NCBI RefSeq assembly: GCF_036588685.1
Contig: NC_086381.1
Coordinates: 41,788,001 to 41,852,000, forward strand
Direction: 5' to 3'
DNA from: Mytilus trossulus
Lineage: Eukaryota
DNA: 64,000 bases
A program made the translations under genes and the position numbers. Positions 499 to 62,603 of this stretch are shown here, one piece after another. Positions within the stretch are counted from its first letter, which is position 1; each line of letters starts with the position of its first letter. The notes beneath the pieces are model-generated. The model was not told the origin of the DNA. It made no database searches and was given only the letters and a program-made list of their open reading frames with translations.

Positions 499-3400
499 CT
501 AACAAAAATAAATAAATCTAATGTATGTATCAATTTTGTCTGAATTAATAATGTAAAGCATTACTGTAAACTATTGTGACATTATGGTATTCAAATCCTT
601 AAATGTAATACTATAAGAGCAGCTTTTCTATTCACATTAGCAATCTATTTTATTCTCGTTAATTTGAATATTTGAAGAAATGAGATTCTGAATGTGAAAT
701 ATACCAGAGCAGTTATTGCCATTCCTCACTACAATCCCTGTAAGATGTTTGTTGATGTCCAGAACTCTGACGCCATCAGAGCTAACATTGACACTCCCTG
801 CAGTAGTTCTTGCTTCTATAGTCACATAATACATCTACAATTCATTCATCAATATAAAATTAAACACATTTACTATTGTGTACATTTAGCATCAAATCTT
901 TCAATAATAGAATAATTGAATGATCAATAGAAAAATTCATTTGAAACCATTTCTACAAAAATTAAACAAGGACTACTCAAAACTATATAGGTCGTCGAGT
1001 ACAGCCGCTGAGAGATTTGCGACACGGAAGATAGAAGAGATAGATGTTTAAAAGAATAAAAGGTTTGATACCAAAAAACTAGTCAGAAAAGTTAATATCC
1101 TCAGGAAATTGATGAAAATCTAACTGCTCTGGTTTTATTATATACAATATATATGACGTCGAAGACTTTCGCCAAAAATTTACGAAATAAAATATCTTTA
1201 ACACACATTTATAGTGTTTTTTAAACATATAAAAAAATATGATGATTACTGCGGATTCATAATTTTTCGTTGGACACCAATTTTTAAGGATTTCATTGAT
1301 TAAGGTGAACAACGAATTGAAATATACAACGAATGACAAATTTTCTATTTTCGTTGCGTGAAGAGATTTTTTACACCATGAAATCAAATAGTTAAGAAAA
1401 TTTAGTTTATCTTTATCCACAAAAATTAATATCAATATAAATACAATGAATCCACAGTTTGTTATTTGAATCAAATATGAACAGAGTTTTTTCCCCAAAG
1501 GAATGCAGTCTTTTCTCATTTGTCAAATCATATATCAATGAGAGAAACACTAGTAAGATAAGTAAAACATATAACGATACCTAAATTTTAATTCTGGTCA
1601 TATACTCATAGAAAGGAAAGAAATGTACTATATTGAACAATATTTATTAGGCAGGCTTATTGTCTAAGCATTTGAAGAAAGAAAAAAAAACGTTCTTTCA
1701 CCAAGATCGTAAGGTTTTAATATATACAATATTTAAAAACAAAATCATTATTGAGGGACCGGTAGTATTTCTGTCAGTATTTAAATGTGACATTCGATTC
1801 ATCACTTTCTCATACATAATTTCTAATTATACATTGTAGCTTTGAAAAGAGTGACACTTATTACCTGAAAAGGATGTAGAGTTAAACCATTAAATATTTG
1901 GACATCAATTGTAGCTAACTTAGCCATTGATGATACATCACATATTTTGGGAACTGTCCCGATGCAAGCACTGAAATTAACAATTTGATGTGGATGTTCA
2001 AAGCCGGACCATGTTACTGCTAATGTTGATCTTTCTAAGGTAAAATCTATATCTTCGTTATCCTTAAAAGAAAAGGGAGAACATTTTGATTATTTACTTC
2101 ATAACTTCCAGAAAGGATTTAAAAGAAAACAAATTAAGATATGTAGACTTAGATCTAATGAAATCGAAATCAGCAAGCCACATTGAAGTTATAATAAGTT
2201 AATTAAATATAACGTTCATAATGTTAAAAAAAATGTCTACTGTGAAATGAAAAATAAACTTTGAAATCTTTAAAACGACAACAACATGAGTGTAAACATT
2301 GCACTAATTTATATACATTATAAAAAAAGAAGATGTAATATGATTGCCAATGAGACAACTATCCACAAAACACCAAAATGACACAGACATTAACAACTAT
2401 AGGTCACCGTACGGCCTTCAACAATGAACAAAGCCCATACCGCATAGTCAGCTATAAAAAAGCCCCGATAAGACAATGTAAAACAATTCAAACGAGAAAA
2501 CTAAACATTGTTTATTAATACACATATAGGATTTACACAAACATAAACTGATTTTGTAAACCTCAATGTTAAAGTCAAATGATGAACTATGTGTACGCTC
2601 CTTGCTTTTGTTTTTTTTACCACCCCCGATGTTGGTATTACCTTTAGCTGTGTTCCAGTGTTATATGTAGGAAATACATCTACAACAACTCCTTCTGCAG
2701 GCAGCTGAACATCATGGATGTATCTCGCCGATGTCTTCGAAACTGACAGACCAGCTAAGTTTGTAGCTTTGATGGTAAAGTAGTAGGCATGGTGACCATG
2801 AAGAGTCCATTTTATGTTTATGATAGGTAACGCTGTGCAAGTTGGATGTTTAGTTTGATAACAAGGTCCAGCGAACTGTAAGTTTCTAAATGGCTGTATG
2901 TCGTACATGTCTGGTTTGTGACCTAATTAATCAAATTATACAGTTAAATATTCATTTAATATAATTTTCACAACTCTCAAACACTTAATGATGAAGCATA
3001 ACACATAAATCTTGATGCATATATATGTACCAAACACATGAACTATCACCAAAAAATATGATTGACATCACATCTATATTGCATAAACAATATATTATAT
3101 ATATACGCACCACGACATCAATCAAAGTTAATAAAAAATGTTAATGTTTACCTCACTAGTAGCACGATTTCAGTCTGAAACGGTCATTTTGGTCTGATCA
3201 CATCTTGATTGACTGGATTTACCGCTAGAGGAAATCGTCGAGACTTTTTAGACCGTTTAAGACTCCGTTACGATCGATAGTCACATCAGGTAAATCAGTC
3301 CGTTAAGGCATGTCAAGATTATCAAGACTGAATCTCCTAGCGAGCTGTTAAGATCCGTTACGACAGTGTCAGACCGAAACAGACCATGGATACAAAATTA

Positions 3401-6400
3401 CGTTAAGATGTTGTCAGACCGTGTTTAGTCGTGTTCAGATTTTATTAATTTGGACAGAAAACGGGTAAAACTTTCCCAGTGTTTATCAGGGGTTGCTCCC
3501 CTTTTAAGAATAAAATTAAAAAGAAGACGGTTTATGTTAACTGAAAGTCTGCCATGTTTTAATTAAATAAAGAAAATAATCAATTCTAATTCATACCTCT
3601 TCCTATTTAATTATTTAACATTTTGTATATTAAAAAAAACCATAAGTGGTTCAAAGTCATACTGCTGCGCAAACCGTGGTGAATTGAGTTTAAAATCGAT
3701 TATTAGTGTACGTCCAGTTGCGTACATATAACATGTATGTCGGAACAATTGTGATGATGACGAATTTCTTCCTTTATTCGAGAACAATCTAATTGATATA
3801 TAAATGTCCATAAATGAGCCAAAGAAAGTTTTATATCGACCTGTATTTAAATCTCTTCTTCTTCTTTTGGTATACAATAGTCTTTCGACATTTGATGATT
3901 ACATACTGTTGGCATACGTGGACTAGTCTACTACATGTAACAAAACTTTTACCCCAATTCACACAAAATGTATGTTTCTTTCTTATGTACAATGTATACA
4001 TGTATATATTTGAATTTGCGCTATAGTTCCGTAACTTTTTATCCTGGCGTATATACGAATGGTCGACAAGTGCGTACATTTTTTTTAATCAAAATTTCTG
4101 GTATAGTCTGATCTGTCCTTCACCATTGACAAAAAATATATATATAGATTTTTATTTCATCAAATCTGTTGTTTATTTTTAGGTATTATCTATATTTTTT
4201 ACATCAGAAATGTTATTCATAAACAAGCGTATGAGTTTAGTAATGACTAGTATATAACAGAGAGCAGAATAAAAAAGGAAAAAACCAATTTTCCTCTTTT
4301 TTCACTCTAATTTCTGACAAGTGCAATTAGAGGCCAACATAGGACAAGAACGTAATAAATTTATTCTATAACCCTTGTATTTGAGAAAAAATCATGAAAA
4401 ACAAAGACAATTCTGTAAAATTAGTATTTATTTGATGCATTTCAAAATAAATTTATACTGAATTCTACACTTTACTGTCCATTTTCATTCAACTCTCCGT
4501 GAATGATGCAACTTAGAATAAATTTATTCTAAATGCATGATGCTTTCTGTATATAATCATTTATAAAATAAATTTATTATAAAGAGCCTTGATATCTATT
4601 ATCAGTTCAAGAAAATCATAGAATAAATTTATTCTACATTTAATGTCATTTATGATTTTATAACAATATTTAAAATAAATTTATTTTGAAAGTCCAGTAA
4701 TCTGTATGGTGAGGTTGAGACACAGAATGAATTTATTCTATGTTCAATATTATTTTTGTCTTGTATAATAATATATAAAATAAATTTATTCTGAAAGTAC
4801 AGTTATCATATTAAGGTGGCGACACAGAATAAATTTATTCTACATTCAATGTGGATTAAAAGTTTTATGATAAATAAAATAAATTTATTTTGATAGTCCA
4901 GTAATAATGTTAAGGTTGAGACACAGAATAAATTTATTCTGGTTATAAAAATATGTAAAATTTGTTTAGGAAAAATTACACTGATCTGTATGATTACATC
5001 AGGCTACAGAGAATAATTTTATTTTAAATTAAACCAGCGGCGTTTTTGATAATATTTGATATGTTCACATAATAAATTTACCATGGCACTACATTTAGGT
5101 CATAGAAAAATGAGTTCCTATATAATTTTCTATCTTTCATGTCTATTCAAAGACATATAACATTCATAAAAAAGTATTTTATATTATTTGAAGTTGCAAT
5201 CTGACAATACAATACAATACATATATCTGCTATCAACAATGCAAAAGGACACTCCCTTGAAATATGAAAATATCAATTTCTTCAGCTGATTTTTTTTATG
5301 TGGGACTGAATAGAAATACTGTGCAGCAATTTTAAAAAACAAAATATCAACATATAAATGTAAATAAACAGATTAGAAATAGTAATAGTTCAACAGGTTT
5401 TTCTTAAATTGAAAATAAATCTGTTTTTTTTAAACATGTCTCTCTCTGTAGATGTACTAGCTGCGGAATCGTAGCTCTTTAGGTCCTTTTGTAATTTTTT
5501 GACTATTTACGGTCCGCAAATAGTCAAAAAATTACAAAAGGACCTAAAGAGCTACGATTCCGCAGCTATAGATGTACGTGCTATGAATTGTCCTTTTTCT
5601 GGCTTCTGGATAGGCCTGATCTGAAAGAAGTAACGACAAATTCAAAACAATTTCAAATATTTTTAGTTATCATACCAAAATTCATTATATTTGATGAAGA
5701 AACTGCCCGTCTTTCTTTTAATCTAAATCATGATGTCTATTTTGTTTACATTCACTCTCTTTATTGTCATTTATAACAGTCTTGCTCCGTGTTAAAATCC
5801 GTACTTTGACCTACAATGATTTACTTTTATTTATTGTGACTTTGATGGAGAGTTGTCTCATTGGCACCCATACCACATCTTTATATATATATATATTGCC
5901 TCTGGATACAGCAAGATAAAAATGGCTATGCTATGCACTTGAACAGTAATTGTTGATTTTTTATACAAAAAAGGGATTAACGTACACAGTAACTCATTAA
6001 ACTTTTACTATTTAAAAGTCAACACTCTATCAAATTAAAATCTCATTATTACATACCTAATCTCAATCTTCAGAAACACTGTATAAGTCAGGACTGAATA
6101 AAAATCTAGTCTTTTTTGCTGGTGTTTCATAACATTTTTCTCACCCTACAAGAAATATTTTGAAGTTTAAAATGCAGAAACACTTACTCTATTATCATGG
6201 TTATTGTTTTTCTTCAGGCATATTTCTTTATTTTTATCAGAATTGGCATGAATCGTTCCCAACTTCCTGAATATGCATGTAATATTTGTCATTAGACATT
6301 CAGCCAGTCATGACCAATCAATCAATCAATCAATCAACCGTAGAGTCTTAAAACAGATGAATGGTTCATGCCTAGGAGACAGCGAACTGAAGACACAAAT

Positions 6401-9400
6401 AACAATTAAAAACAGGTTTCATTAAGTCTTAAACAAAACACAAGACTGGTGTTGACCATACTTTTACCTACACCATTCAACATACCAGAAAACAAGTAAG
6501 ACATGTTCCAAAAAAGAACAGCAGCTTCCACAGGCAAAAGTATGAGTAATGTACTTATTGTTTTCATGAACTTTAGCAGACTGTCTGATTGACCGTTAAC
6601 TTTAATGTATGATGCAGCTGTGTTTTAACTGTAATCATTTCTAATTAGAACCGCACAATTAATTTATGTTTCTGTTTGTTTATATTCTGTTCCGATACTT
6701 GTGATCTGGAGATGAATGCAATGGATTTGACGCGACTGTCATACAAGTGTGAGGTTTAGCTAGCTATATAACCAGGTGTAATGAACGCAATACTAAACTC
6801 CAAATTGTACCTAAGAAACTAAAATTAAAAATAATACAAGACTAACAAAGGCCAGAGGCTCCTGACTTGGGACAGGCGCAAAAATGCGACGGGATTAAAC
6901 ATGTTTGTGAGATCTCAACCCTCCCCTATACCTCTAGCCAATGTAGAAAAGTATACGGATAACGATAGGCATTTAAAATACTACTATAGCAGTTAACTGA
7001 CAAACAAGAGGCCCCAGACTTCAATTAAACTGATTGAAAGATTATGTCTCCCTCTCGTTAGGGATTTAGTATCATTAGTATAATTCTTTTATGCTGTAGC
7101 TGCAATTCCGTTCCCTTTTCACGCCGATGTGACCCACCGAATATTACCGGGTTTGTAATAACATGACCAATACGACGGGAAACACGTGGAGTTCTTTTCG
7201 TTAGGGGTTTAATATATTGATTGAATATAATTATCAGTTTTCACGACAAAAATCTTAGATTCTCTCTTGCATTCCGGCTTTCTCCACCTTTACAGTTTGA
7301 TCACCACGAAATGAACAATATAGTGCTGAAAGTTACGTTAACATCTATATTTCGGTTTTATCACCCAGACTCAAGGTATAGGGTTTGAAGATCTGTTGGA
7401 AAAAAGCAACCGTTCCTAATCACAATGTTCATAATCAAAATAATGTTTTACTTTGAATACATGGAAGGCAAGGCCTCACAAGTACGAGGGTCAGGATGTG
7501 GTCAAATTTACACCATTTTTCTCTTACTATTCTTTCTATTTTTTCATCATTCTCTTTTCTGTAAACCCCCATCCACAGCCTCAGGTATAGACGAAGTGTC
7601 ATTTATGTGGCCTGGTCTAGTAATGTCAGCAGTGTGATCTGCACATATATCATTTTGTAGAAAAAGATGAAGGGGTGGCGTTAAACATTGTTTTGATGTA
7701 AGATATGATACATCTTTTCTATAAAATCGATTGATTGACAGATTGTTGGTTGCTGAACGTGCAGTGTCAAATAGTTTATGCATGCATGCACGGAACGAAA
7801 AGCTATTTTAAAACATTACATACCATGGGGAATACCTGTAATAAAGGGTAGACCAGGATGAAGTTCGGTAAGCTTTTTATACGGGTTTTACATTTTTCTA
7901 CTTGGCGGATGAAGACAATTCTATTCCCAAGTCACGTTTAAGTGTCCATGAAATCAGCAGCACCCATACATATATATATATACCTACTTTCCAATCTATT
8001 AAAACAAATAAAAGACCTTAAGGATAAGACAAAATGGTACACATTCTCAAATGCCTATTTATCGGTAATAATACTTGAGGGTCTTGTTGGATAGTCACGC
8101 GACTGGGAAACGCAGAATAAAGAACAAAACATATAGCATATACAACAAAATATAAAGAATAGAAATTAAAAAGATGATCAAATAGAGAATAAGGAGCAAA
8201 ATTATAAAAATAGAAAAAAAATGTTTTAAAAATTAAAAGAATACAGAATCGATGGACCATCCATCCAGACCATTATAATTTTGTAGTTGTCCATTTTTGT
8301 TTAACATATTATTTTATTTGAATGATATAAAATGACCATACATTAATAACCTCTATGAAATGACACAGATTCAAATAATTTACAACCTTCGATTTGTTTA
8401 ATTCATGTTAGCAAACAAGTGCCGCATATCTATCAGAAGTTTTAAAATAATTATTACTTATTACAACAAACGCGGCTTAAAAGCCTTATCAATTTTATGT
8501 AATGCACGCGTACGTTGATTGTAGGCCCCCTAGTGTTACCACACGCCGAGAAGTCTTCAAATGGAAACACAAGATAATTAATGACAAGACGTAGGACACT
8601 TAAACTGGACCCCTGCTGTGTTCACTTATCGCTACACTGACGGTGCGAAGCTATAGAAGGAACGACGAACCAGTTTACAGGACAATGATCTGTAATTTTG
8701 TATAATATGATCACTTGGTATTTCTCTCTATGTACGTGAAAGATGAAAGACAAGTGGACATCAAAAGGAGGAAAGACAAATTGAACATAGACGGGATAGG
8801 TTTCCAGTTTCGTTTATGAAACATTCATCACAGTTCAAGAAATTAGAGGTTAGTTTTGCTCAGTATACTAGAGGTGGGGTTAGGGGTGGGGGTCAAGGAT
8901 ACTGGGATCTCCTCATGGATTCCCGACATATATGCTCAATGCATACTAGACATTTTACAAGTCTCTGCTTATGCCCCTTTTCAAATCCTCGATCGATCCG
9001 CATCTGCGAATCAATTTGCATAATTCTTTACGATAGCACTGAATAAGAATAATATCGATCACTCCAAAATAAACGAGAACAATTTGGAATATAACATTTA
9101 TGGAACAAATTGACTATACTACTCTGATAATTTGTTATATCACTAAGATAAATTTATATACTACAAGTGTGGACACAGATCAGTGTGGATTGTATGTTTG
9201 GATGTTTGACAGTGTTTTGTATGACAAAAGAAGTTGTGTTTTCCCCGTTGGTTTCTATATTATTAAATATGTTGTATAATATGACAACCAACCTGATCAT
9301 TAGCAGAGTTGTTTTTTATTTGATATTTAGTTTTTTTATGTTCAAGACGGGCATAAAAGAGCTCGAGACACTAATTGCATCAGTTACCAAATGATTATGT

Positions 9401-12400
9401 CAGATAGAGTATGTTCCACATTCTTGATTTTGGATACATTATGAATTTAAGCTAGTAAAAGAGGAACACATACCAAGTTAATTTTTTCATGCGATTTTTT
9501 TTTATTGGAGATGGTATCTGAAAACATGCGAACATAAGTTTGAACGTTAAATTATTAGATAAATATTATTTATTATCTTAAGTTTAATTATTATGATATT
9601 AATAATGTTTCTAATTGGTAATCTCATTATTATTTCCTACTGGTGGAAAATGGAATAATCTTTAAAAATTAAAAAAAATAATAAGTTCACTTTCTTTACG
9701 TTTAGTCTTAGAACAGCTGTTAGGACGCACTAGCTATAAAATTGTTGCATAGAAAGAACATGTACCTATTTTTTTTTTTAGCAAAAAGTGAAAGATACCC
9801 AGGGGCGGGACCAGTCTTTTTTAAAAGAGGGTTCTAAACATTTGTTCCAATTTTAAACCACTGATTGTCAAAAAAAGGGTGTTCAAAGCACGGAGCCCTA
9901 ACTGGATCCACCAAAGGATATTTATACCCATAAGTCTATGAACTGAAAAGTAACACACCATTGCGAAAAACAATAAAAAAAAAAACGAGCAAGAGATTAT
10001 TTTATGTAAAAAAACTAGTTTTGAACATTTTCATAAGTACCTTAAGAACTGTACTCACACTCTTATGCAATCTGTTTGGCACACATAATAATTGACAAAA
10101 AGTCTCCGTCTTCATGGATAACATGACCATTTCAGTCAAAATGTAATACTGTGTTCTTTATAGGTCACCAGACACTTCTATCAAAAGGAATTTTGAAAGA
10201 AACACAAAAGTTTAGAAGGCAGACAAAATGGCAGAAGTTACTACAACCACAGAGAACATTTGGGACAGATACATTTTGAGGAAAATCTTTAGAGGTAATT
10301 TAAAAGATTAAACTTTTAACTGGCTTGAAAGAAATATCTCGGAATGCTGAAATTAAGAATCATAATTGTTTTTGAAAAGTGTTCTTTCTTATCTCATTGC
10401 AAAAGGTTTTGAAAGTGCTATTTTAAATATAATTCATATTTTGACAATTGAAGTTCGGTCGGAATGATTATAAGTGAATTAAAAGTCATTATTTTAAGAA
10501 TGCGTGCAAAGAATCGGTTACTCTATGAAAAGGAATATATTATGAATTTTAGAGCGAGGGCCTGATATGTGATGTGCGGTTGTACAATCATTTGCACATC
10601 TTATTTATACGACGATGAGATCTGGCTGCTCCTTCAGTCCTTGTACATCTCTCTGGCACATTTGCTTACTTTACAAGTTACAGTTCGTTTTTGATAAGGT
10701 TAGTGTAAGATGTTGCAAGACTTTTACCATCTTGAGTTATGCCCATTTATAAACATAAAAATAGCTGGATGTTTCGTTTCTGTTCTCTAACTTTAGTTTG
10801 CCTCAAGCAAATGTAAAAAATCGTATATACAATGCATATTACCATAAAACACAGATCAAGATTTAAATTGAGTGGCCTAACTTCTACCGTTCTTGATATA
10901 CAATGTATGAGTTAAGGCCATTTATAAACATAAAAAATGCTGAATTTTTCGTTTCCGTCCATTAACTTTACATTAGTCTGCCTCAACCGAATGTTAAAAT
11001 CACAAAACAGTCTTAACTACTTGGATCCTGTACATGTATCTCAATGTGGAAGTTGACACGTGCATATTTACGAGCAGGATCATTTGTAGCCCATAGACAC
11101 ATTTTCCATTTTGTTTTGTATGAACTGCATTTTTTTATTTGATCTTTCAGATAGCTTTGGTTGAACGGAATAATGGAAACATGTATTTGGGAATATTACA
11201 TTTACAAAGATGATTGTTCGAAAAGTTAAAAGAGTTTGAAGACGAATAATTCCAACTACAGATCTGTATGTCACTAAAAGATCAGATTACTTAACGATTA
11301 GTACCAGCTGCATTATAACGAAGCTTCAAGTTGTCTCTCGTGTGAAAAGAAAACGACCCCAAATTATTCTAATAGATGACCAGTGACAAAACATTGAACA
11401 AAAATGTTCAGGAATATATTATAAGCAAACAAAAACGACTTAGATGTATTTTTGAACTGTTTGTATGCCATCACATGATAACAAAAGAAGGTTTCCTGGT
11501 TAATGGACAATTACAAGGTTAAGTTTGGATTTCCATCGTACACTGTTTTTACAGTATGTATATAGAAATGTTGTGGTGATTAGCTGTCAATTTATTTTTT
11601 GAAGTTACTATTTTTAACATGCTGATTAAGGAATATTGATGTTAGCCGTGATTTTGTATGTCATTTTCTATTTTAAGACTTTTATATTGTTTTTAAATGG
11701 GTAGTGATGGTTGCAAATTCAATAGGTCATTTAAATTGAGATTATGACCATTATGATATCTTAAAGGATTTTATTTTTAAAAGAGGGGGTAGGTGAAAAG
11801 ATTATTTTTGAGGGGGGGGGGGGGGGGGGGGGTAATTTTCACTCATTACAGATTTCAGAAATTGAAAATGAAATTTCAAAAATCATTTTGCAAAAAAAAG
11901 AGGGGCAAGGGTATATTTTTTCTGGAGTGAGGGTTCAAATAGCAACAGCATAGTGTTCTGCACAAATGCATAAAAAAGAGGTATTTTTTTTTTGGGGGGG
12001 GGGGGGCAATTCGCAACAGCATAGTGTATTGCACAAAAGCCAAAACTTAAATATTATTCAAATGATATAACCGATTCTAAGTTCTTTGGCTACCGTTAAT
12101 CTGTGTCAGAAACCTATATTGCATTAAATAATTAATTACAATCCAAATTCAGACCTGTATCATGCACGAACATTGGGTCCATTTTTGTCCCAACTGCTTA
12201 GACGGCGTGCAAAAAGCTAAGTCTTCAAACGCCGTATAATGGAAATAATTAGATACAATGTCGTGGATCCTTTTCAGAAAACAGCGTCAAAACGCCATTT
12301 CTTTAGATTGTAACATAATACAAATTACGGTGTTCAGTCTGGACTATCGAATCATTCATATGTTGCAGATTTTATTAAACCCCTGGTTTTCCACATTTTG

Positions 12401-15400
12401 AATACCAAGTTATTTTGAAAATCAAAAGATAGCAATTACATATTTTTTCTTACCGATTCTTCCATTTTGATTATTAGTCCTTCCAAATTACTACTTCTTA
12501 CACATACCGAAGATCATTCCAAGCATATCTACTATGGTCGTTTTTGATTTTCTTGCGGTAAATTTCATATAATGTCAGTCTGAATCTGTACAATTCTATT
12601 ATACGAAAATGTGGGATACAATGTTAAATTTGTATAAGTTTTAGGTAAAAAACTCTATTTTATGCTAATTTAATGTTACAAGTTATTCCGATTTTTTGAC
12701 GTTTTCTATATGTCCGTTTCGTGCTTTATAGATTAAATATTAATTTACCTTACTAGTAATGTGGATTCTTATGGCATGCATTCATCATTTTATCATGAAA
12801 AAAAAATCTTCTTAAAAAAATATTAAAATTACATATAAATATTATATGCTTAAAGCTTTTAAAAAAGCGCATTTTACAGTTGCCGTCAACTTTGTGCACA
12901 ACGTCTTTAAAGGATTTGACCTCTACAGTCGTATCCAGTTTCGTTTGGCAAAGCAATTTATTGTATCAGTTTTCTGTAATAAATAAGACCGTTGGAATTT
13001 TCTTTTAAATTATTTTAATTTTGTATCATGTAATACTTTTAAGATTATTTTTATATTGAACAAAATTCATATTGATGTAGAATAAATTTATTCTGTGTCA
13101 CAGCCTCACCGTACAGATTACTTTATTTCAAAACAAATTGATTTTATATATTATTATACAAGACAAAAATCTCATTGAACATAGAATAAATTTATTCTGT
13201 GTTTCAACCTCACCATACAGATTACTTTCTTACTTTACTTTCAGAATAAATTTATTTTATATATTATTATACAAGACAAAAATAACATTCAACATAGAAT
13301 ACATTTATTCTGTGTCTCAACCTCACCATACAGATTACTTTATTACTTTTATTTCAAAATAAATTTATTTTATATATTATTATAATCATAAATGACATTA
13401 AATGTAGGATAAATTTATTCTGTATCACAGCCTCACCATACAGATTACTGCATGGACTTTCAAAATAAATTTATTTTAAATATTATTATAATCATAAATG
13501 ACATTAAATGTAGAATAAATTTATTTTATGATGTTCTCGAACTGATAATAGATATCAAGGCTCTTTATAATAAATTTATTTTATAATGATTATATACAGA
13601 AAGCATCATGCATTTAGAATAAATTTATTCTAAGTTGCATCATTTACTACAGTAAAGTGTAGAATTCAGTATAAATTTATTTTGAAATGTATCAAATAAA
13701 TACTAATTTTACAGAATTGTCATTGTTTTTCATGATTTTTTCTCAAATACAAGGGTTATAGAATAAATTTATTACGTTCTTGTCCTATTTTGGCCTCTAA
13801 TTGCATTTGTCAGAAATTAGAGTGAAAAAAGAGGAAAATTGTTTTTTTCCCTTTTTATTCTGCTCTCTGTTATATATAATATCACTTTCGGACACACAAG
13901 ATAGAGATGCATATTATACGAATGTAGGAAAAAAAGTCACAGGAAAAAAGTCACGGAAAAAAAGTCACGGAAAAAAAAGTCACAGGAAAAAAGGTCACAG
14001 GAAAAAAAGTCACAGGAAAAAAAGTCACAATATATATTTTTTGCATGAAATAGTCATAGGGTCTGCACATACATGTATTAACAGGAGAAACATTCCCAAT
14101 TTGTATTTTTTTTCTTATGGAAATGGTCATAAGGCCGCACATATATATGGATATATTAGCGAAACATTCCCAATAGATATTTGTTTGGAAATAGACATTT
14201 GTTAATTCATTTTATACGACTAGCTTTGGAAATTTAGATATAAATTGCAAATCATTTAAATGGAACATGTTCATGCTGGTGTACTAGATTGATACATGTT
14301 TTCAAGGATTTGTTGTAATTATTTTTGTTTTATATCTCTTAGAGATGTGAGTTTAACAGCAACAATTTCCCCTAATTTTAATAAAAGTTAGAAGTTCAGT
14401 ATATAACTTGACCACATGTTTTTTTGATTTATATAAAGATAAGTATTCTGTAATTTAGTGTTAAACAAACAACTCATTGCCATTAATAATAGCTTAGCAT
14501 TTTATACATATATATCTAGGGACTGTTGATATTGATGTGTGGCTTCTTGTGGCACCTCCCCCCTTTGTAGACCTTTTATTTCTTGTCTTCGTAGGAAGCC
14601 ATATCAATGAAATACAACTTATGCTCAATATTAAATAAAAGGACACAATCAGTTTTCCCTGTTAGTTAAAAAAGTCAATTTTGAAAAAAAGAAAATGATT
14701 TATTCAGATACACTTTTATTAGTATATATATCACGTATATAATTCCTTTATAGTTTTAAAAAATTAATCCGATACAAATATATTATGACTTTTTCAATGC
14801 ATTCGAAAACTACAGTTTAATTATTTATTGCATACATGTACATAGTGACTTTTTCACATGCATTCCAACATATTTCTGACAAATAAGTTTACTTAAACTT
14901 AATTGTGACTTTTTTTTCTTGTGCCTTTTTTTCCTGTGACTTTATTTCCGTTATACACCTAATAGTTCAAAATGGAAAGTTATAAGTTACAGGCCGTTTA
15001 CACTGACCAATACCCCTAAGACGTGAAACGATGCATGAATTTGCAAGCTCGACAGGAAATCGCCTGAATACCTGGACGTGTCACACCCCCTCCAATACCT
15101 TTGGGAGTAATACCTTTAGTCATGCAGGTGATCAGTGGAACGAAGATCCTAATTTATTTGAATAAAGTTTATTACATAAAAGAATTATGAACTAATTAGA
15201 TTTCCGAAAACAATTCAAGTTTCACGGAACAATTATTTATGATTTGAAATTTTTACTATTTAACTTATTCCAATATTATCATTATTGTTAAAAATAACAG
15301 ATCATGGTTATTAAAAAAAAAAGATAAGAAAATTTTCCGTATCAACATAGTGTGTAATATAAAAGTTAACTAGTCGGATAAAACAACCGTACGATTGACA

Positions 15401-18400
15401 AGATATCGACACGCAATTACGACTACATCGGGTTACTGTAGTTTTGTTCCTTAGACATATCTTGGGTGCAAAGGTGAGAAGGTAACACAATGGCCGACCG
15501 GAGAGAATTGATACTCTAAATTCAAAATCGATGGTGATCTCTTATCTAGCAGAATTAAACTTTAATATTCATGCATTTGAGCATTTTTATACAGAATGAA
15601 CATAATATCAATTTTTTTTTTGCGAAGTTTCCCTTTAATGAAAATTCCCAATCATCACAATAAAAAGGGTGAAACAGCTTGTATACTTTGAGCTTTCGAA
15701 CTAAATGGTAACCCCAACCCCCAACATAGAATGGTTCAAATTTTGAGTTGGAGCCGTTAGACTGCTCTATAAATTGATATAATTTGTCTCGGTGGATCCA
15801 GGGGGTTCCGGGGGTTAGACCCCCTTTTTTTGGCCGATCAATGCATTTGCATACTTGGACCCCCCTTTTACTCTGGGTTGGGACCCCCTTTTTGAAAATG
15901 GCTGGATCCGCGCCTGATTGTAGTACACTGCACTGTGAGTGTTTGTTAGATAATCACGCGCGATTTTATCATTTAAATGAAATGCTTCACGAAATAACTA
16001 AGATCAGTTTATGTGTACTCGTAACACAAAGAAGAAAAGATTGGGCTGCTTCTCTTCAATTGTGTCTAGTTACCAAAGTAACATCAAAATTTATAATTCT
16101 CTGACAATGCACCTGGTGATATATTGTATATGTCATTCCAACACTTACACTTGTTCTTTTATTTGTGTGGTTATTTAATGACCATTTTAATTCAAAGCTT
16201 GGTCAGTTGGATTTGCATCCTTCATTTTCCAGTACTCCAGAATTTCTACATACATATCACAGTAAGTAATTAAAGTTGTGTGTTAAACGTCAATGCGAAA
16301 GCAAAAAATCCATAATTTTTTTTAGAGGGCACATATGTTTCTTTCGTCTGACAGCAGGTATACACCACAGTTATCGTAAATTATAAAAACATATATAAAA
16401 AAAATCGAAAAGAAACCATTATTTTTTTTAACACAAAACAGAGAAAAGAACTGGAAAGTGCGGGGAATCCATGCGCCTTTCCTCCCTGATGTTTCGATAT
16501 TTAAAAAAATAATTATTCTTTTATCCATGTTAACACGTGAAAACTACACCAGTGAGTTCCATATATGTCATAAACTTACAGCTGGTCCTGAATATGCATG
16601 AAGTATTTGCCACTGGACTTTAAACAACCAACAATCAATCACACTACAACTTATAGTATATATAGTTGTGAAATACAAAATGTATATTATAATTATACAA
16701 TTAGCCAAATAAATAGAATACAATGATACACACTACTTTATATACTAAGTAACTGACATAATTTAAAGGAATAATCTCTAAACTATACAAGTAGAGAAAC
16801 GAAAAGTTTCTTTTGAATAGTAAACAAACTTCCGAACAGTACATGTTTTTTAATGATTTTCCCGACGGCGCTCAAATATTTTGCATGGTCTTTTAGTGTT
16901 TAGACATATGACATTGTAAGAACCTTTAACGTATAATAGATTCAAATTCGTTATTTTGTTCAATATAAGAAAAACAAAGACATGTATATTAAAAACTGAC
17001 GGTCAGACATCACTATTTAAATACGTGTATACACAAATTCATTAGTTCTTTATTAACGTTTAGCCCTCCGGCACCTTTTTTTTTTTTATTAAGAATGATG
17101 ATGAGAGTAATTGTAAAATATAATAGGCATGTTCTTTCTTACGTTATGGATCATTGATTTTGTTACCTGTTGACCCGGTTGATTACTAGCACGTGCCATT
17201 GAACTCGACCATTTTAACTAACACAGATTTTTTTTAAATTAACGCCATACATATATACTAAGTACTATATACATATAATATGAATTAGAAAATAAATTTT
17301 ATAAGGATACAACATTGTTTGAATGAACATTTTTATACGGTGATACTTTAACACGGTCCCGACAGAGACTGAATGCAGTATCATGATCAGCTTTCGGGAT
17401 CCGGGAAGTCTTTTTTTTGAATTTCCGGATGTCGAGAATATTTTTTTCCAAGTTTAATAGAGTAACTCGCACGAAAAAAACATAAAAAAGCAACAGCTTC
17501 CACGGTAAACTATGACATATATCAACAGATAACGAATTAAAGCAACTGTAACACATAAAACAAAAATATGCATGTGTTAATTTGCCTCCGTTGCATTTCT
17601 GTGGATTGTCTCATTGGCAATCATACCACATTTCCTTAACTTTTTAAGGTAACGTTTAGGATTTTCCGTTACTTTTTAATCTTCAAATACGAAACACATT
17701 TTCACCGGTGTTCACATTTTAAGGTTAAATTGATGGCATACATTTTGGTGTGTATACAATAAACATACGTCCTTGCATTTAATTATCAATATATATATTC
17801 ATATAAACTAACATTTATTAAAAAATAAACAATTATATAGACGAATAATTTAGTAGTTCCTCAACAAAACAAGAAAAGAAATAAAGAATCAACAGAAGAT
17901 TTAATCCTTATCTATCTTTTAATTAACCAAAATATACTTCAAATTATAATTATATTAAAATACATGTATATTAATCTAAAATGCATTATCGAGTAGAAGG
18001 GGCGCAACTCGTGGTATCAAACCGATATACTGAACGGATCTAAACAGGGTCTGAAAATTTTGAACGTAATTTTGTATCCATGGTCTGTTTTGGTCTGACA
18101 CTGTCTTAACGGGTCTAAACAGCCCGCTAGACGATTCAGTCTTTTCCGTCTGGACATGCCTTAACGAACTGATTTACCTGATGCGGCTATCGATCGTAAC
18201 GCAGTCTTAACGGTCTAAAATGTCTCGACGATTTCCTCTAGCGGTAAATCCAGTCAATCAAGATGTGATCAGACCAAAATGACCGTTTCAGACTGAAATC
18301 GTGCTACTAGTGCCTGTACCGATGAGTTTATCTTCATACAGAAAATTAAAAAAACATTGCAAGCTCCCCATGAATTAACCATATTCAAATACAGCCATCG

Positions 18401-21400
18401 CTTTGATCAAAGCGCTCTAGGTGAAGGCAAATATTTTCCATTCAAATAAATGAACGCTCTATTGAATTGATGTTATAGAACGGAGCAAATTTAATTAGTG
18501 ACATGCTTAAACTATTTACAATAACGTTTTTGGATACGTTTGGATAATTTTAAATGATAATGTTTTTTATATATGTCTAATATGATTTACAAAATGGCTT
18601 ATAACAAATTTTAGCGTCGTTTGTTAAAGTGTCATTGGTTTGATGATTTTCAGTTTCTATAAAATGCTTATATTCGTCGTTTTTTGACGTCGGGTAGCTC
18701 ATTCATAAAAAAAACCCCAAAACATATGATGGAATGTTTTGCAAATGTAATAAAATTTATAAAGTAAGCTAGCTATAAAACCAGGTTTAATCCAACTTCT
18801 ACATAAGAAAAATGCCTGTATCAAATTAAACATGACAGTTGTTATCCATTCGTTTAATGTGTTTGAGCGTTTGATACTGCATTTGATTACGGACTTTCAA
18901 TTTTGAATAATCCTTGGTGTTCGATGTTTTTGTTATTTTACATTTTTCTAACATAATGTACACATATACTACTTGCCAACTGCGTATTGGAAATGCATTG
19001 GAAAAGGGTCATCTGGATCCACGAAAGCACCAACTGACCAATTTGCAATTAGATTTTCATCTACTAAATTAACGTCAATCTGATCACCAGCAAACTGTGG
19101 TTTTGTTGTGTCAACAATAAATGGACCAATACTCTGAAATATAAATAATAGTTCTCAAAGGAACTTTCGTAAACTTATACATGTAATAATAATACAAATG
19201 AACACCAAATTTAACACTGTTGATACATTCAAGGAGGTTCAAGGGTATTAATCAATTTTTTTTTAAATATAGGATTTTGCTTTTTTTTTTTCAATAAAAA
19301 ACATTATCATATACTTAATAGAAAAATAAAATACTCACAGTCTGCCTTTCAAAATAGCATGAATTTTTGCTAAAGTTCTTTTTTCTATTAAGTTAAAAGG
19401 AGAAATAGAGGTATTATCAAAATGAATAAAGAACTAAATTACAAAACTCATTTTAATTTTACAGTTGTTTTGTTTAATTATACGAACAGCTTCTTTGAAT
19501 AAAATAATGAAAAAATAGGTCATCGATGAGTTAAAAAAAAATTCAATTTAATGCAAACAATTGTCATCTGGGCCCATAATGAATTGATTTGTTTGGTTAA
19601 TTTATGCAACATATTATAAAGTTACAACTAACAGTGTGATAAATAATATTTGTAATGAAAACTATACTGTTCAAATTTTTGCTGAAATTTTTGTACCCTC
19701 GAGCTTTAAGTACATGTACTTTAATGTACCATTGTTTCTTTATTCAATAATTGTTAAGATATAATTACTATTATTCTGACTGTATAATTTTGAATCATAT
19801 AATTACTATTATTCTGACTGTATAATTTTGAATCATAATATAAATTAAGTTACCAGGATACTGTACACCATGTGCTACTCATTAAAATAACACACGAGCT
19901 CTTGACAAATCTTATAGGATCTAAGGTTATTATGGGTTTTTATGTTGGATTCATGTTGTTAAAAATTTAACAGTAGTATTTTAGGTTGTTTATGACGTCA
20001 ACATTTCTCGTTGTCCAATGGTGATGTTCGTGCTTATTTGATTCTAATTAGTTACCCTCTCTTATCGTATTGCAATATCTCGCTCATGCTTGATTTTATT
20101 TTATTGTACAATGATGATTTCATTATGCCGATCGTTTGTCTGAATTTACAAGTTATTTATCTCAACGAAAATGCATAAGGGCATCATTTTCTGTATTGTA
20201 AAAATTGTGAATACGTTAATATAAATACGTTGCAATATAATGACTAATCAAATAAATATAACCTGTATGCCTTCAACTCCAGCTTTACTTATTGATTTAA
20301 TGATAACGTGAAATTCCTTTCCATCTGGAACATCGGGGTGATTCAGTCTGAAATGTGTATGGTGTTTGGTTGTTCGAAATGGCACTATGTCGGGGGCAGA
20401 ACTGTGTGTGGTTGAGGACAGTCCCACTTCGTAATCATGAATTAATTTGTAATCAATTCCTGACTTCCAAATCATTTTAAACTGAAAATAAAATTATTAT
20501 TTAATATAATTTTACATATGAGATAGGAATACACACTTATTTTAGTATACCATAGAAATTTTATAGAAAATATTGATGCAATATTAATGATTTCCAGTGT
20601 CAGTTTTCAGATATTGTTGAACTTATAATAAAATGTCTTTAATTGATCAAAGTTGTGTCTAATGAGTAGTCTTCTCATATACAATCATATCATTACATTT
20701 CCTTGCTGGCATTTCAGATAGAAACGTATTGATTTAGCGAGTACTATTAACAGGACAGTAACTTTTGCTATCTTAATACAACCCAGAAGAACAAAAGAAC
20801 CATTGAAACTGCCATACTTAATATGGTCAACGTTCCACGTGATAGTACCGTGCGTTGTTTTAATAAAGAAAGACACACCAAAATGCAATGAATACTCACG
20901 GGCAAACATTCTTATTTGATGATTAACCATATCATCTTGGTCACATCATACCAGTTATTGAATTTCCACTTAATTGGTTATTTCCGTCTGACACGTTTGG
21001 GTATACATATGATATCGTTTATTAGGATTTGTTTTTCATTCGGAAAACATTTTGACGGTTAATCCCAAATTGTCTATTTTTGAACTTACATTCATCAAAG
21101 GTTGTGTTCGTTTATGACGGCATTTTGCACAATTCATCAGAGGACTTTAAAGATCAGACCAATCCAGATTTAGAGTATCGATTCAATATAAACATTTAAC
21201 CAGTGCAACTAAATATAGATGGAACTAACAAAATTCCCAAGTTTGGGTATACATGTGCATTATATATTTGTACAGCTGTCAAAATTTGCTTTATTTCTTT
21301 TCATGTCTGATTAAACATTATGATTTGGGTATTGCTGACAAGCGAATTGTAAAGTTGCTCTTTCTAAATCATGAAATCCAAGTTAACAAGGTTTTCTATT

Positions 21401-27400: not shown

Positions 27401-30400
27401 ATGCGGTCAAATAATGTTGTTGTACAAGTCAGCCTGAGCTATCAAAAATACTGAAATTTTGTTACGTATCAATATATTTAATAAAAGAAGACAATGTTGG
27501 CACCCTAAATGTATGGGGACACAATTTATTAGTTAATATATTCCAAGATTGCTGTCATTTGTATTATACACTGAATCCTGATATATAGATTTACAAAATA
27601 AAGTGGAAATATGGTAAGTTTTGGCTGATTTCAAAATTATTTATTGTACAAGGCAGCATAAAGTATCAAAACTACTGAAATTTTGATACGTAGCAATATA
27701 CATACATGTAATTATTGAATAAAAGACATGCTGGTACCCTAAATATGCGGTATTTTTTTTAGTTATTGTATTCAAATATTGCTGTCATTTGTATTGTACA
27801 TTGAATTCTGATTAAAAAAAAATGGCTGATTCACTATGCGGGTGTATAGATTTACACAATAAATAGCAAATATGGTCAGTTTAGGTTGATGCAGTCAAAT
27901 AATTTTGTTGTACAGATCAGTCTGAGATATCAAAACTACTAAAATTTGGTTACATTTCAATATATCAAATAAAAGGAGGACTTGCTGGCACCCTTAACTT
28001 ATGCAGACACAATTTTGTAGTTATTGTTTTTCCAATATTGCTTGCATTTGTATTATAAATTCAATCCCGACATAAAAATTTGACTGATTTACTATGCCGC
28101 TAAATAGATTTACATGATAAAGTGCAAATATGGTCAGTTTTGGTTGAAGCCGTAAAATAATTTTGTCGTACGAGTCAGCCTGAGGTATCAAAACTACAAA
28201 TTTTGTTACGCATCAATATATTGAACAAAATAAGGACATGTTGGCACTCTTACTATGTGCAGACAAACTTTTGTAGTCATGTATTCCAATTATGCTTTAT
28301 TTTGTATTATAAATTCTATCCTGACATTAAAAAATTGCTGATATATTATGCGGCTATATAAATATACAGTATATAGTGCAAATGTGGTTGAATTTAATAG
28401 GGATTGCAATGTATATGCAATGCCCGTAAGCATTGTAACTAGGATCATATTTTAATATATAGAAAGGCAGATCACGGATACATTTGTATAACAAGCAACT
28501 TTTTCTGCGTACTTTATTTACAAATATATGTATTTAATCTTGTTTATATATCGGATTTATGATTTTACTTTTTGATGTATATTCCAAGAAACAAAGATAT
28601 TAGAAAAACATTGTTTTTAAACTATGAGCGGTCCTGGTTACAAATTAACTTAGTGTTGAGCAGACTAGTCAAAAGTTAACATGAGAACAGGTCTGGTTGC
28701 AATCGGAATTGTCAAATTAAAGTTAACTTAATATGTTAACTTTATGACAGGACTGGTTTCGAAGTTAACTTACGTTACCTTTATTGCAGGACTGGTTTCG
28801 AAGTTAACTTATATTATAGATTTTTGTCCTAGGACCAGGTCCGCTTTACAAGTTAACTAGATATTGGTCATAAGACTGGCCTAAACAGTTCTAAATCCTG
28901 TCATGGCTAACTTTGATCAGTCCAAATGACTGGTTATCAAGTTATCTTGCTTTGGGCGATTGGTGCAAAGAATGAATTTAGCTTATTATTTGTTTCCAAT
29001 TATATTTTTAAATGAAGAAGTACCTGTGCCATGCCTTGAGCATGTAGTTCAGCCTTTCCGTGAAGAATGGAATTGGAAGTGTAATTATCAAATAGTCGCC
29101 ATTCAACCTGATTTAATCCACTGTCGAAATCAAACGCCTCCCATTCAATGCTGTAAAATTTCATAAATGTGATAAAAAGCATCAATTAGATTTCATTAAC
29201 GTATCGACAGAGTTAAAACGATTAATTTAAAAAACAACATAAAGGTAAATAAAAAACCGTAAAATCACCCATATACATGTACACATTTAAAAACATGCTA
29301 AAATTCCTTGTTTTGTATATACAAAATATTGTCTGTAACTGGTAATATCAATTAAAGTTATGCACATGTAAAAAGGTATGCAGCAAAAAGTTATCATCAA
29401 GTTTATACTTACGTCATTTTAGAAAAATCCTCTATACTGTGAACAGATATATTTACGTTATCCCCACGTGATAACCATAAGTTTTCAATGCGAGGAGGGC
29501 TGACATCTTTGTAAACAACTACTGTTTCTTCTGCAAACTTTTCTAATATGTCATAAGCCCTTACAGTTATGTCCAATCTATTTCCGTCATTCCATGGTAC
29601 ATTGATATGTCCAAATTGTGATAGCACATCCACTGTTGGCGTAAACGCTTGTTGCGCAGAAAGTGCTGGACTATATACTTCATATTTCACTTCAAATCTC
29701 ACCACACCTATGTTAAAGTATCCCCCAAAAATTAATACTCAGTTATAATGTTCTTACTTTAATATCTGTTTCTTGTTATTCCTGAGTTATTTTTTTTTTA
29801 AAGTCAAATGACTGCGTACAAGTTCGAGAAAATATTTAAAAGATGCAATTCAATAAACTTAGGGTTTAAACTAAATTAATGCATGATTCTTTGAGCATTA
29901 TTTCATACCAATTTGCAGCTTTATGAAATAATTCGAAAGGAATAACTTATGTTCAGCTATACTTTTTAGGCTTTACTATTGAAAAAGATTAATCTGAACG
30001 TCTTTTCCCGTTGATCTGTAATTTATTTTCCATGTAATAAAAACGTTTTGATATGACATGGTATTATTTTTTTTGACATTGTTGAAGGCCGTAAGGTGAC
30101 CTGTATTTGTTCGGTTTTGTGTCATTTGGTCTAACGTCGAGAGATGGTTCGTTGATAATCATACCACATATTCTTATTGTTAGATCAACTGCAAAATATT
30201 AACAATAATGTTTTGTTCTCTTATGCGGTTAAATTGATGTTGTCAACTGACCTGTATCCTGCGAGTCACACTCGTGAATTTCACCCCATACGATGGGTGG
30301 TTAAATAGCTCGTAAATTATTGGTTTTACCAAAAATTATTGATCCCTGAATCGAAACAGTTTTAAAAATAAGCAAAATGACCACAAAACTATATGTGGTG

Positions 30401-33400
30401 AACTTTGTAAAAAAGATCTATCGGTTCATATCCAACAGCTAATGGATTTCGGGTAAAGACATAATTAACAGTCAAAACAAATATGAAATTGTTCTAAGTA
30501 GCTTAAATTACCATGAGCATTAGGAATTTCGTCTACACTACGTTTCCCATAATGATCATCATATTCACCGACAACGTCAGATAGACTTCCTACACTACCC
30601 AACCAATGATTCTGTTTATGTCTAAAGTTTATAAAACGATCCCTCCATGATACTTTCAAAGTTTTGTCGCTAACAGAAATCCAAGTATAATTTGTGTCTT
30701 TTGATGATTGTTCAACAATAGTTCTTTTCCCTGCCATTATATTAACTTTGGACTGGTTGTCGTAAAAGATCACACATCTTGTAGCTTTATAATTGAGCGC
30801 TTTGTCATAGACAATGAGTGTTGCGGAGTATAGTCCTGGTGACTTTAAAGTTATGACAGCCTATATAAACACAAATTTATAATAAAGATATAAAAATAAA
30901 AAATGAATTTTAATTATATTTGCATCTTATGTAAAATCTGGGTTTTAATTTACTTTTTTCAAATGAATATCGTTATTTTTTAACGCAACCGGTGTATTTG
31001 CAAAAAGAAAATGCCCTTTTTACCCTCTTTGCCGTGGTATTTGCCAAAAAATACTCTATCCGACTGGACGCTTGTAACGTCATGATCATCAATGCGCTTT
31101 TAAACATTTACATTCGGTGATATTAAACAGATATAGCATGTTCGTGAGGGGTATTTGCGAAAAATACCAGCCTTGAGAATGAATTTCCTTCGCCTTACGG
31201 CTCGCGAAATTTAACATTCTCTCGACTGGTATTTTTCTCAAATACCCCTCCTTGACATGATATATCTGTTTAATGTAAGTCAAAAGGAATATGCAATATT
31301 TTCAATTTTCAAATATCAATTAAAGATTATGCTATTAAAAGCTTTTGATTAAAGCCGTCCTTTGACATGATATACAATATTTTATGTTCTCGAGTATTGA
31401 CTCTCCTTATGGATCATGAATTTTATGATTTTATCTGCTCTTACACGTATGACATATGTTTTTGATTTTTAATTCTTTTGGACCTCTAGCATGTCTAGTA
31501 TCACTGAAAGACTACAGTTGTTAAAATGCATATTTGCTAATGAAATATTGATATCGCCAGTATAATCCGACTTATACATGTTATAATTCTAAGCAATGCA
31601 GTGTGTATGTAACAATTTAAGGTAATTTTGAAATTCACTATTTTTCTGTTGACATTTTATTAAGAATACTTAATGTCAATCTCCATCTTTTGAATTTCAA
31701 ATATTAAATTTCAAATTTACATTTCCTTAATCAGTGTTGAAAAATGTTGTCTTTTAGGCGATTACAATTGATTTGTTATGTACTTGCATTTGGCTGACTT
31801 ATCGCAATGTTTAAATTTTGTGCCACCATTTTTGTTCCTTGAACTAATTTTGAGCCATCAGATGCTAATTCGAACACTTGATATTCGTAGTGATGAAGAC
31901 CAGCCATGTCATCTTTCCATCCATCCCAAGAGATTGGTACATTTGCCTGAACAAACAAAAATGGACAATTAGCTTGATATACTAAACTGAAGAAAATAGA
32001 AAAAATTCAAAACGGAAAATTCATCATCAAATGACAAATTAAAAATCTCAAATACATCAAACGAAGGGAAATCATCCGTCATATCATTAATATAGAAGAG
32101 GCATTTTCTCATAGACCATGGTGGTTTAAATAAGACTTGTATTGCTAGCGTAACCTCACTCTTGTAAGACAGTCGCATAGAAACTTATTATATTGCCAAT
32201 AATGTATGCGCAAAACAAACAGAGATGATAAGAAAAAATGTCAAAAATTGGGAAACACTAAGCAGTGTGTCACAACATGAATCACTTTAAAAGCGAAAAA
32301 CTATGTCAACAACGAAAAAAGGCACAAATAAAATCTAAAGACAAAGCGCAGCAACAATAAAAGTACAACAAGTCAATAGTCAGTTAAAAATGTAACGGTT
32401 GCTTAGAACTTGTTATGATGATATACAGTTTGAAAACGAAGTGCAAAGGAAACATAGCTTTATTTATAGTGCACTCGTTCTATTTCAGCAGTGAAAATAT
32501 GTTGACTGTTTATTTCTATTTCATATACAGTCACTGACCCGATATTAAGTTTCCTCATGAATATCTAAATAGAAACTGCCGCAACTATGTTTAATTATCC
32601 ATACGACCTCTTTATCCTGCTCTTGTCTCCAATGTGTACAAGTGTAATGTTATGTCCACTGTAATTATTTTTGTCATATGACCGTTTTTGGTTATCGTCT
32701 GTTAACGTCATTAAGTCAAATGGCTATCCTGCTATAAGAGATTAACATAGCATGTTCTCCAAGGTCACGTAGTAAATACTTTTATTTGATTCATATGTTT
32801 TATTTTTGTAAACAAAGAGTTGGAGAATATTTGGAGAATATTTGGAGAATATTTGGAGATTATTTAGGTCAGTTGGAGAATATTTGGTGATCAGTGGTAT
32901 ATAAGAGCTTTCTGTTAAGAACGATACAATGTGAAACGTTAAAAAGGATTTTTGTTATTCTAGCCACTACATTATTTTTGATACATCTTAGCAGATTACT
33001 GATAGCTTTGGAATTATTAATAATTCTTTATATTTTGTCCGCACAGTATTGGACACTGTTGCGTGGTTCCTCTTAGTATTGGACACTGATGCGTGGTTTT
33101 GTTCGCACAGTATTTGACACTGTTGCGTGGTTCCGCTCAGTATTGGACACTGAAGCGTGTTTTTGAACGCTATGCGTGGTTTTTGTGTGTGCACAGTATT
33201 GGACACTGTTGCCGATTTTATACGGAGTGCGTGGTTTTGTTCGCACAGTATTTGACACTGTTGCGTGGTTCCGCTCAGTATTGGACACTGAAGCGTGGTT
33301 TTGTCCACACACTATTGGACACTGTTGCGTGGTTTTGTCCGCATAGTATTGGACGCTATGCGTGGTTTTTGTGTGTGCACAGTATTGGACACTGTTGCCG

Positions 33401-61729: not shown

Positions 61730-62022
61730 TTATGTATGTGTCTGTCCCAAGTCAGGAGCCTGTGATTCAGTGGTTGTCGTTTGTTTATGTGTTACATGTT
61801 TGTTTTTCGTTCATTTTTTTTTACATAAATGAGGCCGTTAGTTTTCTCGTTTGAATTGTTTTACATTGTCTTATCGGGTCCTTTTATAGCTGACCATGCG
61901 GTATGGGCTTTGCTCATTGTTGAAGGCCGTACGGTGACCTATAGTTGTCAATGTTTGTGTCATTTTTTGTCTTTTGTAGATAGTTGTCTCATTGGCAATC
62001 ATACCACATCTTCTTTTTTATA
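61730..62022 (+). mobile_element. Nin-domain SINE inserted into the Ginger transposase
   Basis: gggctttgctcattgttgaaggccgtacggtgacctatag core, and ataccacatcttcttttt tail. Confidence 0.8.
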
Positions 62023-62603
62023 TAACAATAGAAACCAAAATTCCGAAAGAAATATTGGTGACTTAGAAAAGGAGGAGGACTTATTTCAGCTCCAGACGGA
62101 GTCTTTAAATAACCAATCTATAACTTCAAATACTACAGAAAACATTGACAATGCCCGTTATATACCAGAATCAAATACAAAACCAAATGTGGAACCTTAT
62201 ACTTCAAACACTGATGAAACGCAAAGGGTAAGTTGTAAAAAGTAATAAGAAAACTCTTTAATCTTGGAGGGCTTCAACTAAAGTATTACAGTATTTCAAT
62301 GTAAAATTTAATGTTTAACATTTTTAGATTGAGTGTAAAGTCCAACGATCATTATGAACAAAAACGTTATTAACAAAAAATTGTAACTAATTTTTAAAAA
62401 CAGATTTATTCTAGTCCTGCATGATAAATATTTATAGTTACACAATATGAAATGTTTTTATCTTATTATCTATTCAATTGCAAATAAAGGCAGCTAGAAT
62501 TAATTAAAGGATATTCGTAAACCATCTATTGAACTATTTAAGGATTTTCAAAGTCTTCCCGTTACTAAGATAATACTTTACCATTAGTCATTGATAATAT
62601 ATA

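Follow-up and report, generated by a model that had tools for sequence, protein, structure and literature searches.

The 64,000-nucleotide stretch of the Mytilus trossulus genome analysed here (contig NC_086381.1 of assembly GCF_036588685.1, positions 41,788,001 to 41,852,000; hereafter, the window) harbors a 9,614-base-pair (bp) element at 4257-13870, which is probably one copy of a non-autonomous, foldback-type family of mussel cut-and-paste transposons, moved as a whole with its middle included. Long inverted arms bearing a ladder of palindromes, a TA-type flank, and a position inside an intron were directly observed, as were raised sequencing depth across the middle, deletion variants, and a small nested hairpin.

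The left arm (4257-5025, forward strand) is 769 bp long and the right arm (13079-13870, reverse strand) 792 bp, both measured up to the innermost palindrome, in agreement with an earlier note on this DNA that described highly similar arms of 700-800 bp with these outer ends. The outermost inverted match pairs 4251-4478 with 13649-13876 at 97%, and 407 of 418 aligned columns are identical over the outer ~440 nucleotides (nt) of the arms (97.4%), which also contain one 19-nt indel. In the left arm, a unique end of ~95 bp, beginning ACAGAGAGCAG, is followed by twelve clear copies of a 16-bp palindrome (at 4352, 4444, 4515, 4565, 4620, 4672, 4724, 4777, 4826, 4876, 4925 and 5010) and a degenerate copy near 4955, at rank 12, behind a shortened spacer. 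The right arm also has twelve clear copies and a degenerate one at rank 12 (13130), and both degenerate sites carry an identical TTTGTTT change. With up to two mismatches allowed, the palindrome AGAATAAATTTATTCT occurs at 24 sites in the window, every one of them inside the arms (12 per arm), versus 0.27 expected by chance; none of 100 shuffles reached 24. The repeated palindrome reported earlier is therefore real, but the different module numbers claimed for left and right are not: each arm holds 13 sites (12 clear, one degenerate), and only the sequence of the inner units differs.

From the third site inward, palindromes follow one another at 49-60 bp (means of 51.3 and 53.7 bp in the left and right arms, respectively), consistent with the interval of roughly 40-60 bp first suggested, while the outer gaps are 52-92 bp. 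Over the same range two palindrome forms alternate, mostly AGAAT..ATTCT and AAAAT..ATTTT, giving a two-palindrome tandem unit of 99-113 bp (inner units of ~99-105 bp on the left, 104-113 bp on the right). Units 3 and 5 are 98% and 95% identical between arms. The inner ~100-bp units, in contrast, match better out of register (86-93%) than in register (76-79%), suggesting that tandem duplication occurred separately in each arm. Across nine units, palindrome columns are 93.8% identical versus 71.0% for ungapped spacer columns, a contrast that represents an upper estimate, as the damaged left unit 11 was omitted and the palindromes themselves served as the unit boundaries. The better-kept palindromes fit putative transposase-binding sites, and self-repair of palindromes is a rival cause that would produce the same pattern. 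A joint linking 4656 to 4764, considered as a variant in module number, was dropped because the right arm’s R7 unit would itself give this joint. An 18-bp form of the palindrome matched 66 metagenome loci, with one site each and none of arm length among the matches listed, and the element terminus gave two bacterial matches of 23-28 bp in genome contigs; both results were taken as chance. The terminus was found in no metagenome contigs and no viral contigs.

Both ends of the element are flanked by TATATA (4251-4256 and 13871-13876), which can be read as a repeat of TA, TATA or TATATA, or as AT or ATAT with the end shifted outward by one base. Direct repeats were tested at 16 candidate end positions: the only exact ones are TA/TATA/TATATA (start at 4257, ACAGAGAG) or AT/ATAT, with TA and TATA also exact for a start at 4255 and TA at 4253, and at none of the 16 positions is there an exact direct repeat longer than 6 bp. 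A TA-type target would be the simplest reading of this site, itself a run of TA seen in a single copy. The window contains just two copies of the terminal 19-mer, both facing outward, so neither arm is a complete element by itself; together with TATATA on both flanks, this bears out the view of a single two-armed element rather than two insertions.

The window is AT-rich animal DNA, and the element lies entirely within a ~16-kb intron (2927-18974, minus strand). Three Mytilus proteins align with the exon at 2926-2642 (top identity 91%), and minus-strand exon mapping joins the exon at 19139-18975 directly to this one, with zero residues missing in all three homologues; the element therefore holds no host exon. 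The host gene (664-39916, minus strand) is large and multi-exon and belongs to an uncharacterised Mytilus family, represented here by the three homologues; no Pfam family was matched by the host proteins.

Evidence from other copies comes from public sequencing runs (numbered here as X1, X2 and so on), 20 of 24 listed runs containing part of the stretch and none containing half; they include four organisms as well as mollusc metagenomes. None of the runs containing the stretch is listed as RNA, although X15 may be of that kind. Four runs were aligned to 2400-13070, which covers the left arm and the middle, with the right arm outside. In X1, where depth is 38.1 for the contig of the host exon (620 nt, 4 differences), five listed interior contigs (238-346 nt) have depths of 590.6, 499.5, 413.7, 326.2 and 309.3, or 8-15 times the host exon, and the arm at 4375 reaches 1,067 (28 times). 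In X2, six of the seven listed interior contigs lie at 38-93 and the arm at 158, versus 9.4 for the host exon; the seventh (depth 8.9) is a divergent partial match. Arm depth is thus about twice that of the interior in both runs, the 2:1 ratio expected from one family with a fixed middle, in which each middle has two arms. Depth remains at ~630-660 in X1 over the arm-to-middle border (5000-5113), and X2 contigs running from ~4994 beyond 5180 cross this border. Interior contigs of X1 differ from the window copy by 1.6-4.8% (pooled, 3.3%), left-flank repeat contigs by ~13% (39/300 and 24/177). In each of the four runs, the bin at 4180-4535 greatly exceeds position 4375 in depth, which places either the very tip of the element or the left flank in a repeat of higher copy number. 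Horizontal transfer, considered on the basis that the interior differs by 4% from X14 contigs and the host region by 6-10%, was judged unneeded, as the deep contigs are majority paths.

Deep joints in these runs (5205 to 5289, 5448 to 5569, 6700 to 7525, 11339 to 12973, and 12199 to 12911) connect remote segments of the middle in the order that they have in the window. Other copies lack 83 bp at 5205-5289 (joint depth 433 in X1, 19.5 in X2), and in many copies an 824-bp block with fragments of high-copy repeats (6701-7524) is replaced by 4 letters (depth of the joint 559 in X1, 101 in X2 and 396 in X14, where 7204-7491 is present at 384); its loss is more likely a deletion in the copies without it. 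Some copies carry a 1,633-bp deletion (11340-12972; joint depth 215 in X1, 437 in X14), and a second deletion variant, of 12200-12910, was seen in X2, X14 and X15. Since the interior is multicopy and the joints reveal variants in other copies, the middle is likely a property of the family. Local capture of a genomic segment by the arms, proposed in the earlier note, is not supported, given that in X1 and X2 the interior has roughly half the depth of the arm and the deletion joints are collinear; an interior common to the copies, which that note had itself set against capture, is indicated in both runs.

One of these joints (5448 to 5569, with 9 shared letters) corresponds to the empty site of a nearly perfect 111-bp hairpin at 5458-5568, which has 55-bp arms (98%), TAG..CTA ends, and an exact 9-bp flanking duplication, TAGATGTAC (5449-5457 and 5569-5577). 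The empty form has a depth of 609 in X1, 20 in X2 and 446 in X14; the X1 value corresponds to about all copies, making the hairpin a later guest, likely a small non-autonomous element. Its TAG..CTA ends are presumably Academ-like. The 9-bp duplication falls within the range of AcademH, for which target duplications of 9 or 10 bp are described (PMC10045372), and duplications of 9 bp are also made by other superfamilies. Five Rfam matches to microRNAs, all on the perfect hairpin, were rejected, since their scores of 38-43 bits lie below the gathering thresholds of 54-106; no transfer RNA was found.

The middle (5026-13078; 8,053 bp), which is multicopy in the public runs, holds no detectable protein family. 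Its guanine-cytosine (GC) content is 32.4%, versus 31.6% elsewhere in the window, and its tetranucleotide profile (r = 0.964) falls within the range of six host blocks (0.931-0.967), so the description of this segment as foreign DNA did not hold. The presence of old, decayed repeat fragments, for which the earlier note proposed the names SINE and HINE, was confirmed: 582 of the 8,053 bases match elsewhere in the window at 72-92%, including a degraded piece, at 5782-5893, of a repeat with very high copy number (72% to 61910-62024), and two bins have extreme depth in X1 (0.73 million at 5604-5959 and 1.69 million at 6672-7027, versus 38 for the host exon). Scans for coding and splice signals, which were crude and used weights approximated from general knowledge, picked out an exon-like stretch on the forward strand (10164-10294) with AG..GT borders and an ATG at 10228. 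A pyrimidine-rich acceptor lies downstream, at 11150, and all frames beyond it are broken; no homologue was found for the exon-like stretch or for the frames from 11151. Searches against Pfam with all six frames of the middle, stops being read as X, recovered no family (two sub-threshold matches, E-values of 0.12 and 0.031), nor did searches with 13 chosen pieces (one sub-threshold match, E-value of 0.069). Deeper protein searches, which covered part of the middle, gave no matches for 11151-11600 with phmmer against 1.84 billion proteins and none in word searches of 10165-10293 and 10127-11626, while Atlas look-ups returned nothing for 8747-9043 and only scores below 0.9 for 12756-12965. As judged from these searches, the element appears to bear no trace of a transposase.

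Several observations weigh against a family moved whole with its middle. Summed contig depth is not copy number, and the single-locus baseline is uncertain twofold, X14 having two contigs at 2926 with a total depth of 65.3, or ~30 each. Flanking intron bins are also deep from other repeats (19,000-55,000 in X1), so that bin means prove little, and one of 22 middle bins in X2 (9520-9875) has just 2.2-fold the baseline depth. The 2:1 ratio of arm to middle does not extend to X14, in which depth is 11,562 in the outer arm at 4375 versus ~375-1,590 where family-level depths are listed for the middle, an excess of ~7-30 times, implying that most arms there have another, a diverged, or no middle. 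Among the contigs listed, none spans the element, and the listed joints and loose ends show neither its outer end nor an empty site; a second full copy was likewise not found. As to the ends, a start at CAG gives 5, 2, 8 and 2 mismatches in tests for 7-, 8-, 9- and 10-bp duplications, respectively, and a start at ACAG at best 2 mismatches in 8, so that there may be a 10-bp or 8-bp duplication with two mismatches at the CAG start.

According to the model that we favor, a transposase made elsewhere would move the element as a unit. A dimeric partner transposase might bind the palindromes, which are spaced about five helical turns apart, and pair both ends, cutting at ACAGAG...CTCTGT and inserting at TA-rich sites. 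The arms may have lengthened as the two-palindrome unit was duplicated in tandem, to some extent separately in the left and right arms, and the family would have been amplified to roughly 4-15 copies per genome before deletions and nested insertions arose in individual copies.

How the middle originated can be explained in several ways. Compatible with the favored model, and adding an origin for the middle, is capture by a founder of the multicopy Pack-TIR type, in which a shorter foldback acquired ~8 kb of host sequence, old repeats included, on a single occasion and was then amplified. We regard this as possible but doubtful, and take an equally tentative view of the version that posits about tenfold copies in several mussel species, with other cargoes or empty forms where arms outnumber the middle. 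The middle resembles the host intron in composition, its repeat fragments, 72-92% similar to other repeats in the window, predate the family, whose spread is 3.3%, and founder capture would also agree with the lack of a transposase trace and with the large arm excess in X14. Moreover, four contigs with the depth of a single locus align to the middle over 185-295 bp at ~88-92% (~8-12% divergent), then continue into unlike sequence; the pieces matched are 10426-10717 and 7769-7993, and two of these contigs, from X2 and X14, begin at the identical base, 10426. These are possible donor fragments or older repeats; however, they are divergent and shorter than 300 bp, may equally be older family members, and are all that the public runs offer in place of an arm-less donor. 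A long-lived element also accumulates old repeats without capture, and only 4 multicopy Pack-TIRs (1.4%) were recorded when 100 animal genomes were surveyed (PMC8277862). The middle might instead be the eroded body of a once-autonomous element, whose intron-rich transposase gene decayed or was deleted while the arms remained usable; we would not expect this to be the case, though it merits consideration. Bivalve Tc1-like elements with introns (TLEWI) span 2.2-11.5 kb (bioRxiv 10.1101/656579), the splice borders at 10164-10294 are good, and internal deletions are frequent among the family copies. Yet TLEWI elements are mostly without inverted repeats, and an eroded gene is hard to reconcile with the Pfam searches, in which nothing rose above noise, or with the empty phmmer and word searches.

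Two further accounts separate the middle from the arms. A distinct multicopy element could be nested within a short (~1.6-kb) foldback, here only or in a few copies, as might be suggested by the arm excess in X14 and by the lack of a contig across the whole element; this is improbable, given the near 2:1 ratio of arm to middle in X1 and X2, the continuous family-level depth over 5000-5113, the X2 contig that crosses the arm-to-middle border, and the lack of any noticeable terminal structure at 5026 or 13078. Finally, a unique segment may have been captured locally by the arms, or two independent inverted insertions may flank native intron. Host-like composition, old fragments, and arms that are more alike than those fragments would suit such an event, but the multicopy middle with its collinear variants largely refutes it, neither arm has a second terminus, and the flanking repeat is matched between the two outer ends of the 9.6-kb element; we consider it very improbable.

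Of the structural features by which foldback elements such as Tetris of Drosophila virilis are defined (PMC4079207), long inverted arms, a unique end followed by tandem modules, and a non-coding middle are present; as to variability of the middle in size and composition between copies, also typical of foldbacks, deletion variants and the arm excess in X14 stand against the middle shared in X1 and X2. Tetris likewise has unique outer and tandem inner arm domains and a non-coding middle, and no autonomous partner is reported for it in the sections accessible (PMC4079207), but it differs in its 8-10-bp duplications, 220-bp units and variable middle, whereas the mussel element has a TA-type flank, two-palindrome units of ~100-113 bp, and a middle shared in X1 and X2. 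The 8-10-bp duplication of Mutator-type foldbacks (FB, Tetris) was not seen at the 16 end positions, the best being two mismatches in 8 or 10. Galileo, of the P superfamily, resembles the mussel element in its nested insertions and in its long arms, which expand through the gain of tandem repeats, and has many non-autonomous copies (PMC4168063); additional sites for the transposase lie within these repeats (as cited in PMC4079207). However, Galileo makes 7-bp, rarely 8-bp, duplications (GTANTAC; PMC4168063), while the mussel CAG start has 5 mismatches in 7 and 2 in 8, and the protein searches of the element found no trace of a THAP or P transposase.

The target repeat points to possible membership in the IS630-Tc1-mariner superfamily, whose target duplication is TA (PMC10045372, bioRxiv 10.1101/656579); TA is exact at three possible ends of the mussel element, within a TA run and in one copy, and so compatible with this assignment. 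Within this superfamily, some members have very long inverted repeats, and Sailor/DD82E makes a TATA duplication (PMC8533490), which is exact in the mussel element for starts at 4255 and 4257 and inseparable there from TA or TATATA. Sailor ends are usually GT or CC (PMC8533490), whereas the mussel element starts with ACAG (or TAACAG, TATAACAG), and its possible starts read TAT, AT, TAA, AAC or ACA. Molluscan Sailor elements also have repeats of 34-237 bp in 2.2-2.5 kb (PMC8533490), as compared with arms of 770-790 bp in 9.6 kb without a transposase. Spy elements (PHIS) make no duplication and insert in AAATTT, while the mussel element, taken from the CAG start, is bordered by TAA and TTA. Animal Pack-TIRs, including Ssk-FB4, share with the mussel element inverted-repeat ends around host-like DNA, but are defined by a transposon-free parental copy (PMC8277862); the mussel element is known from one locus and from run contigs. 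No description of this foldback family was found in the literature searched, which did not extend to Repbase and Dfam, and the accessible sections of PMC10294476 and PMC5139131 describe no such element.

Elsewhere in the window, a second, smaller and more worn element (13912-14964) lies 40 bp from the right end, with inverted arms around a ~870-bp core; its arms consist of a 15-bp unit, AGGAAAAAAAGTCAC, in 7 copies on the left and 3 on the right. Short satellite-like arrays occur at 27755-28388 (258-bp unit), 33033-33398 (30-64 bp), 41039-41256 (35 bp), 52027-52227 (28 bp) and 53351-53965 (161 bp). Open stretches on the minus strand at 56615-58016 resemble what we take to be the end of a long interspersed element (LINE) reverse-transcriptase frame.

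These results add an apparently undescribed foldback family to the repeat annotation of mussels. They also illustrate that long arms around host-like DNA are no proof of local capture, and that copies of the middle must be counted. Should a donor locus exist, the family would represent an unusually large multicopy cargo for an animal, and a route by which kilobases might be duplicated in mussel genomes. The ladder of palindromes, at five-turn spacing, is well suited to testing how transposons with long arms recruit their enzymes.

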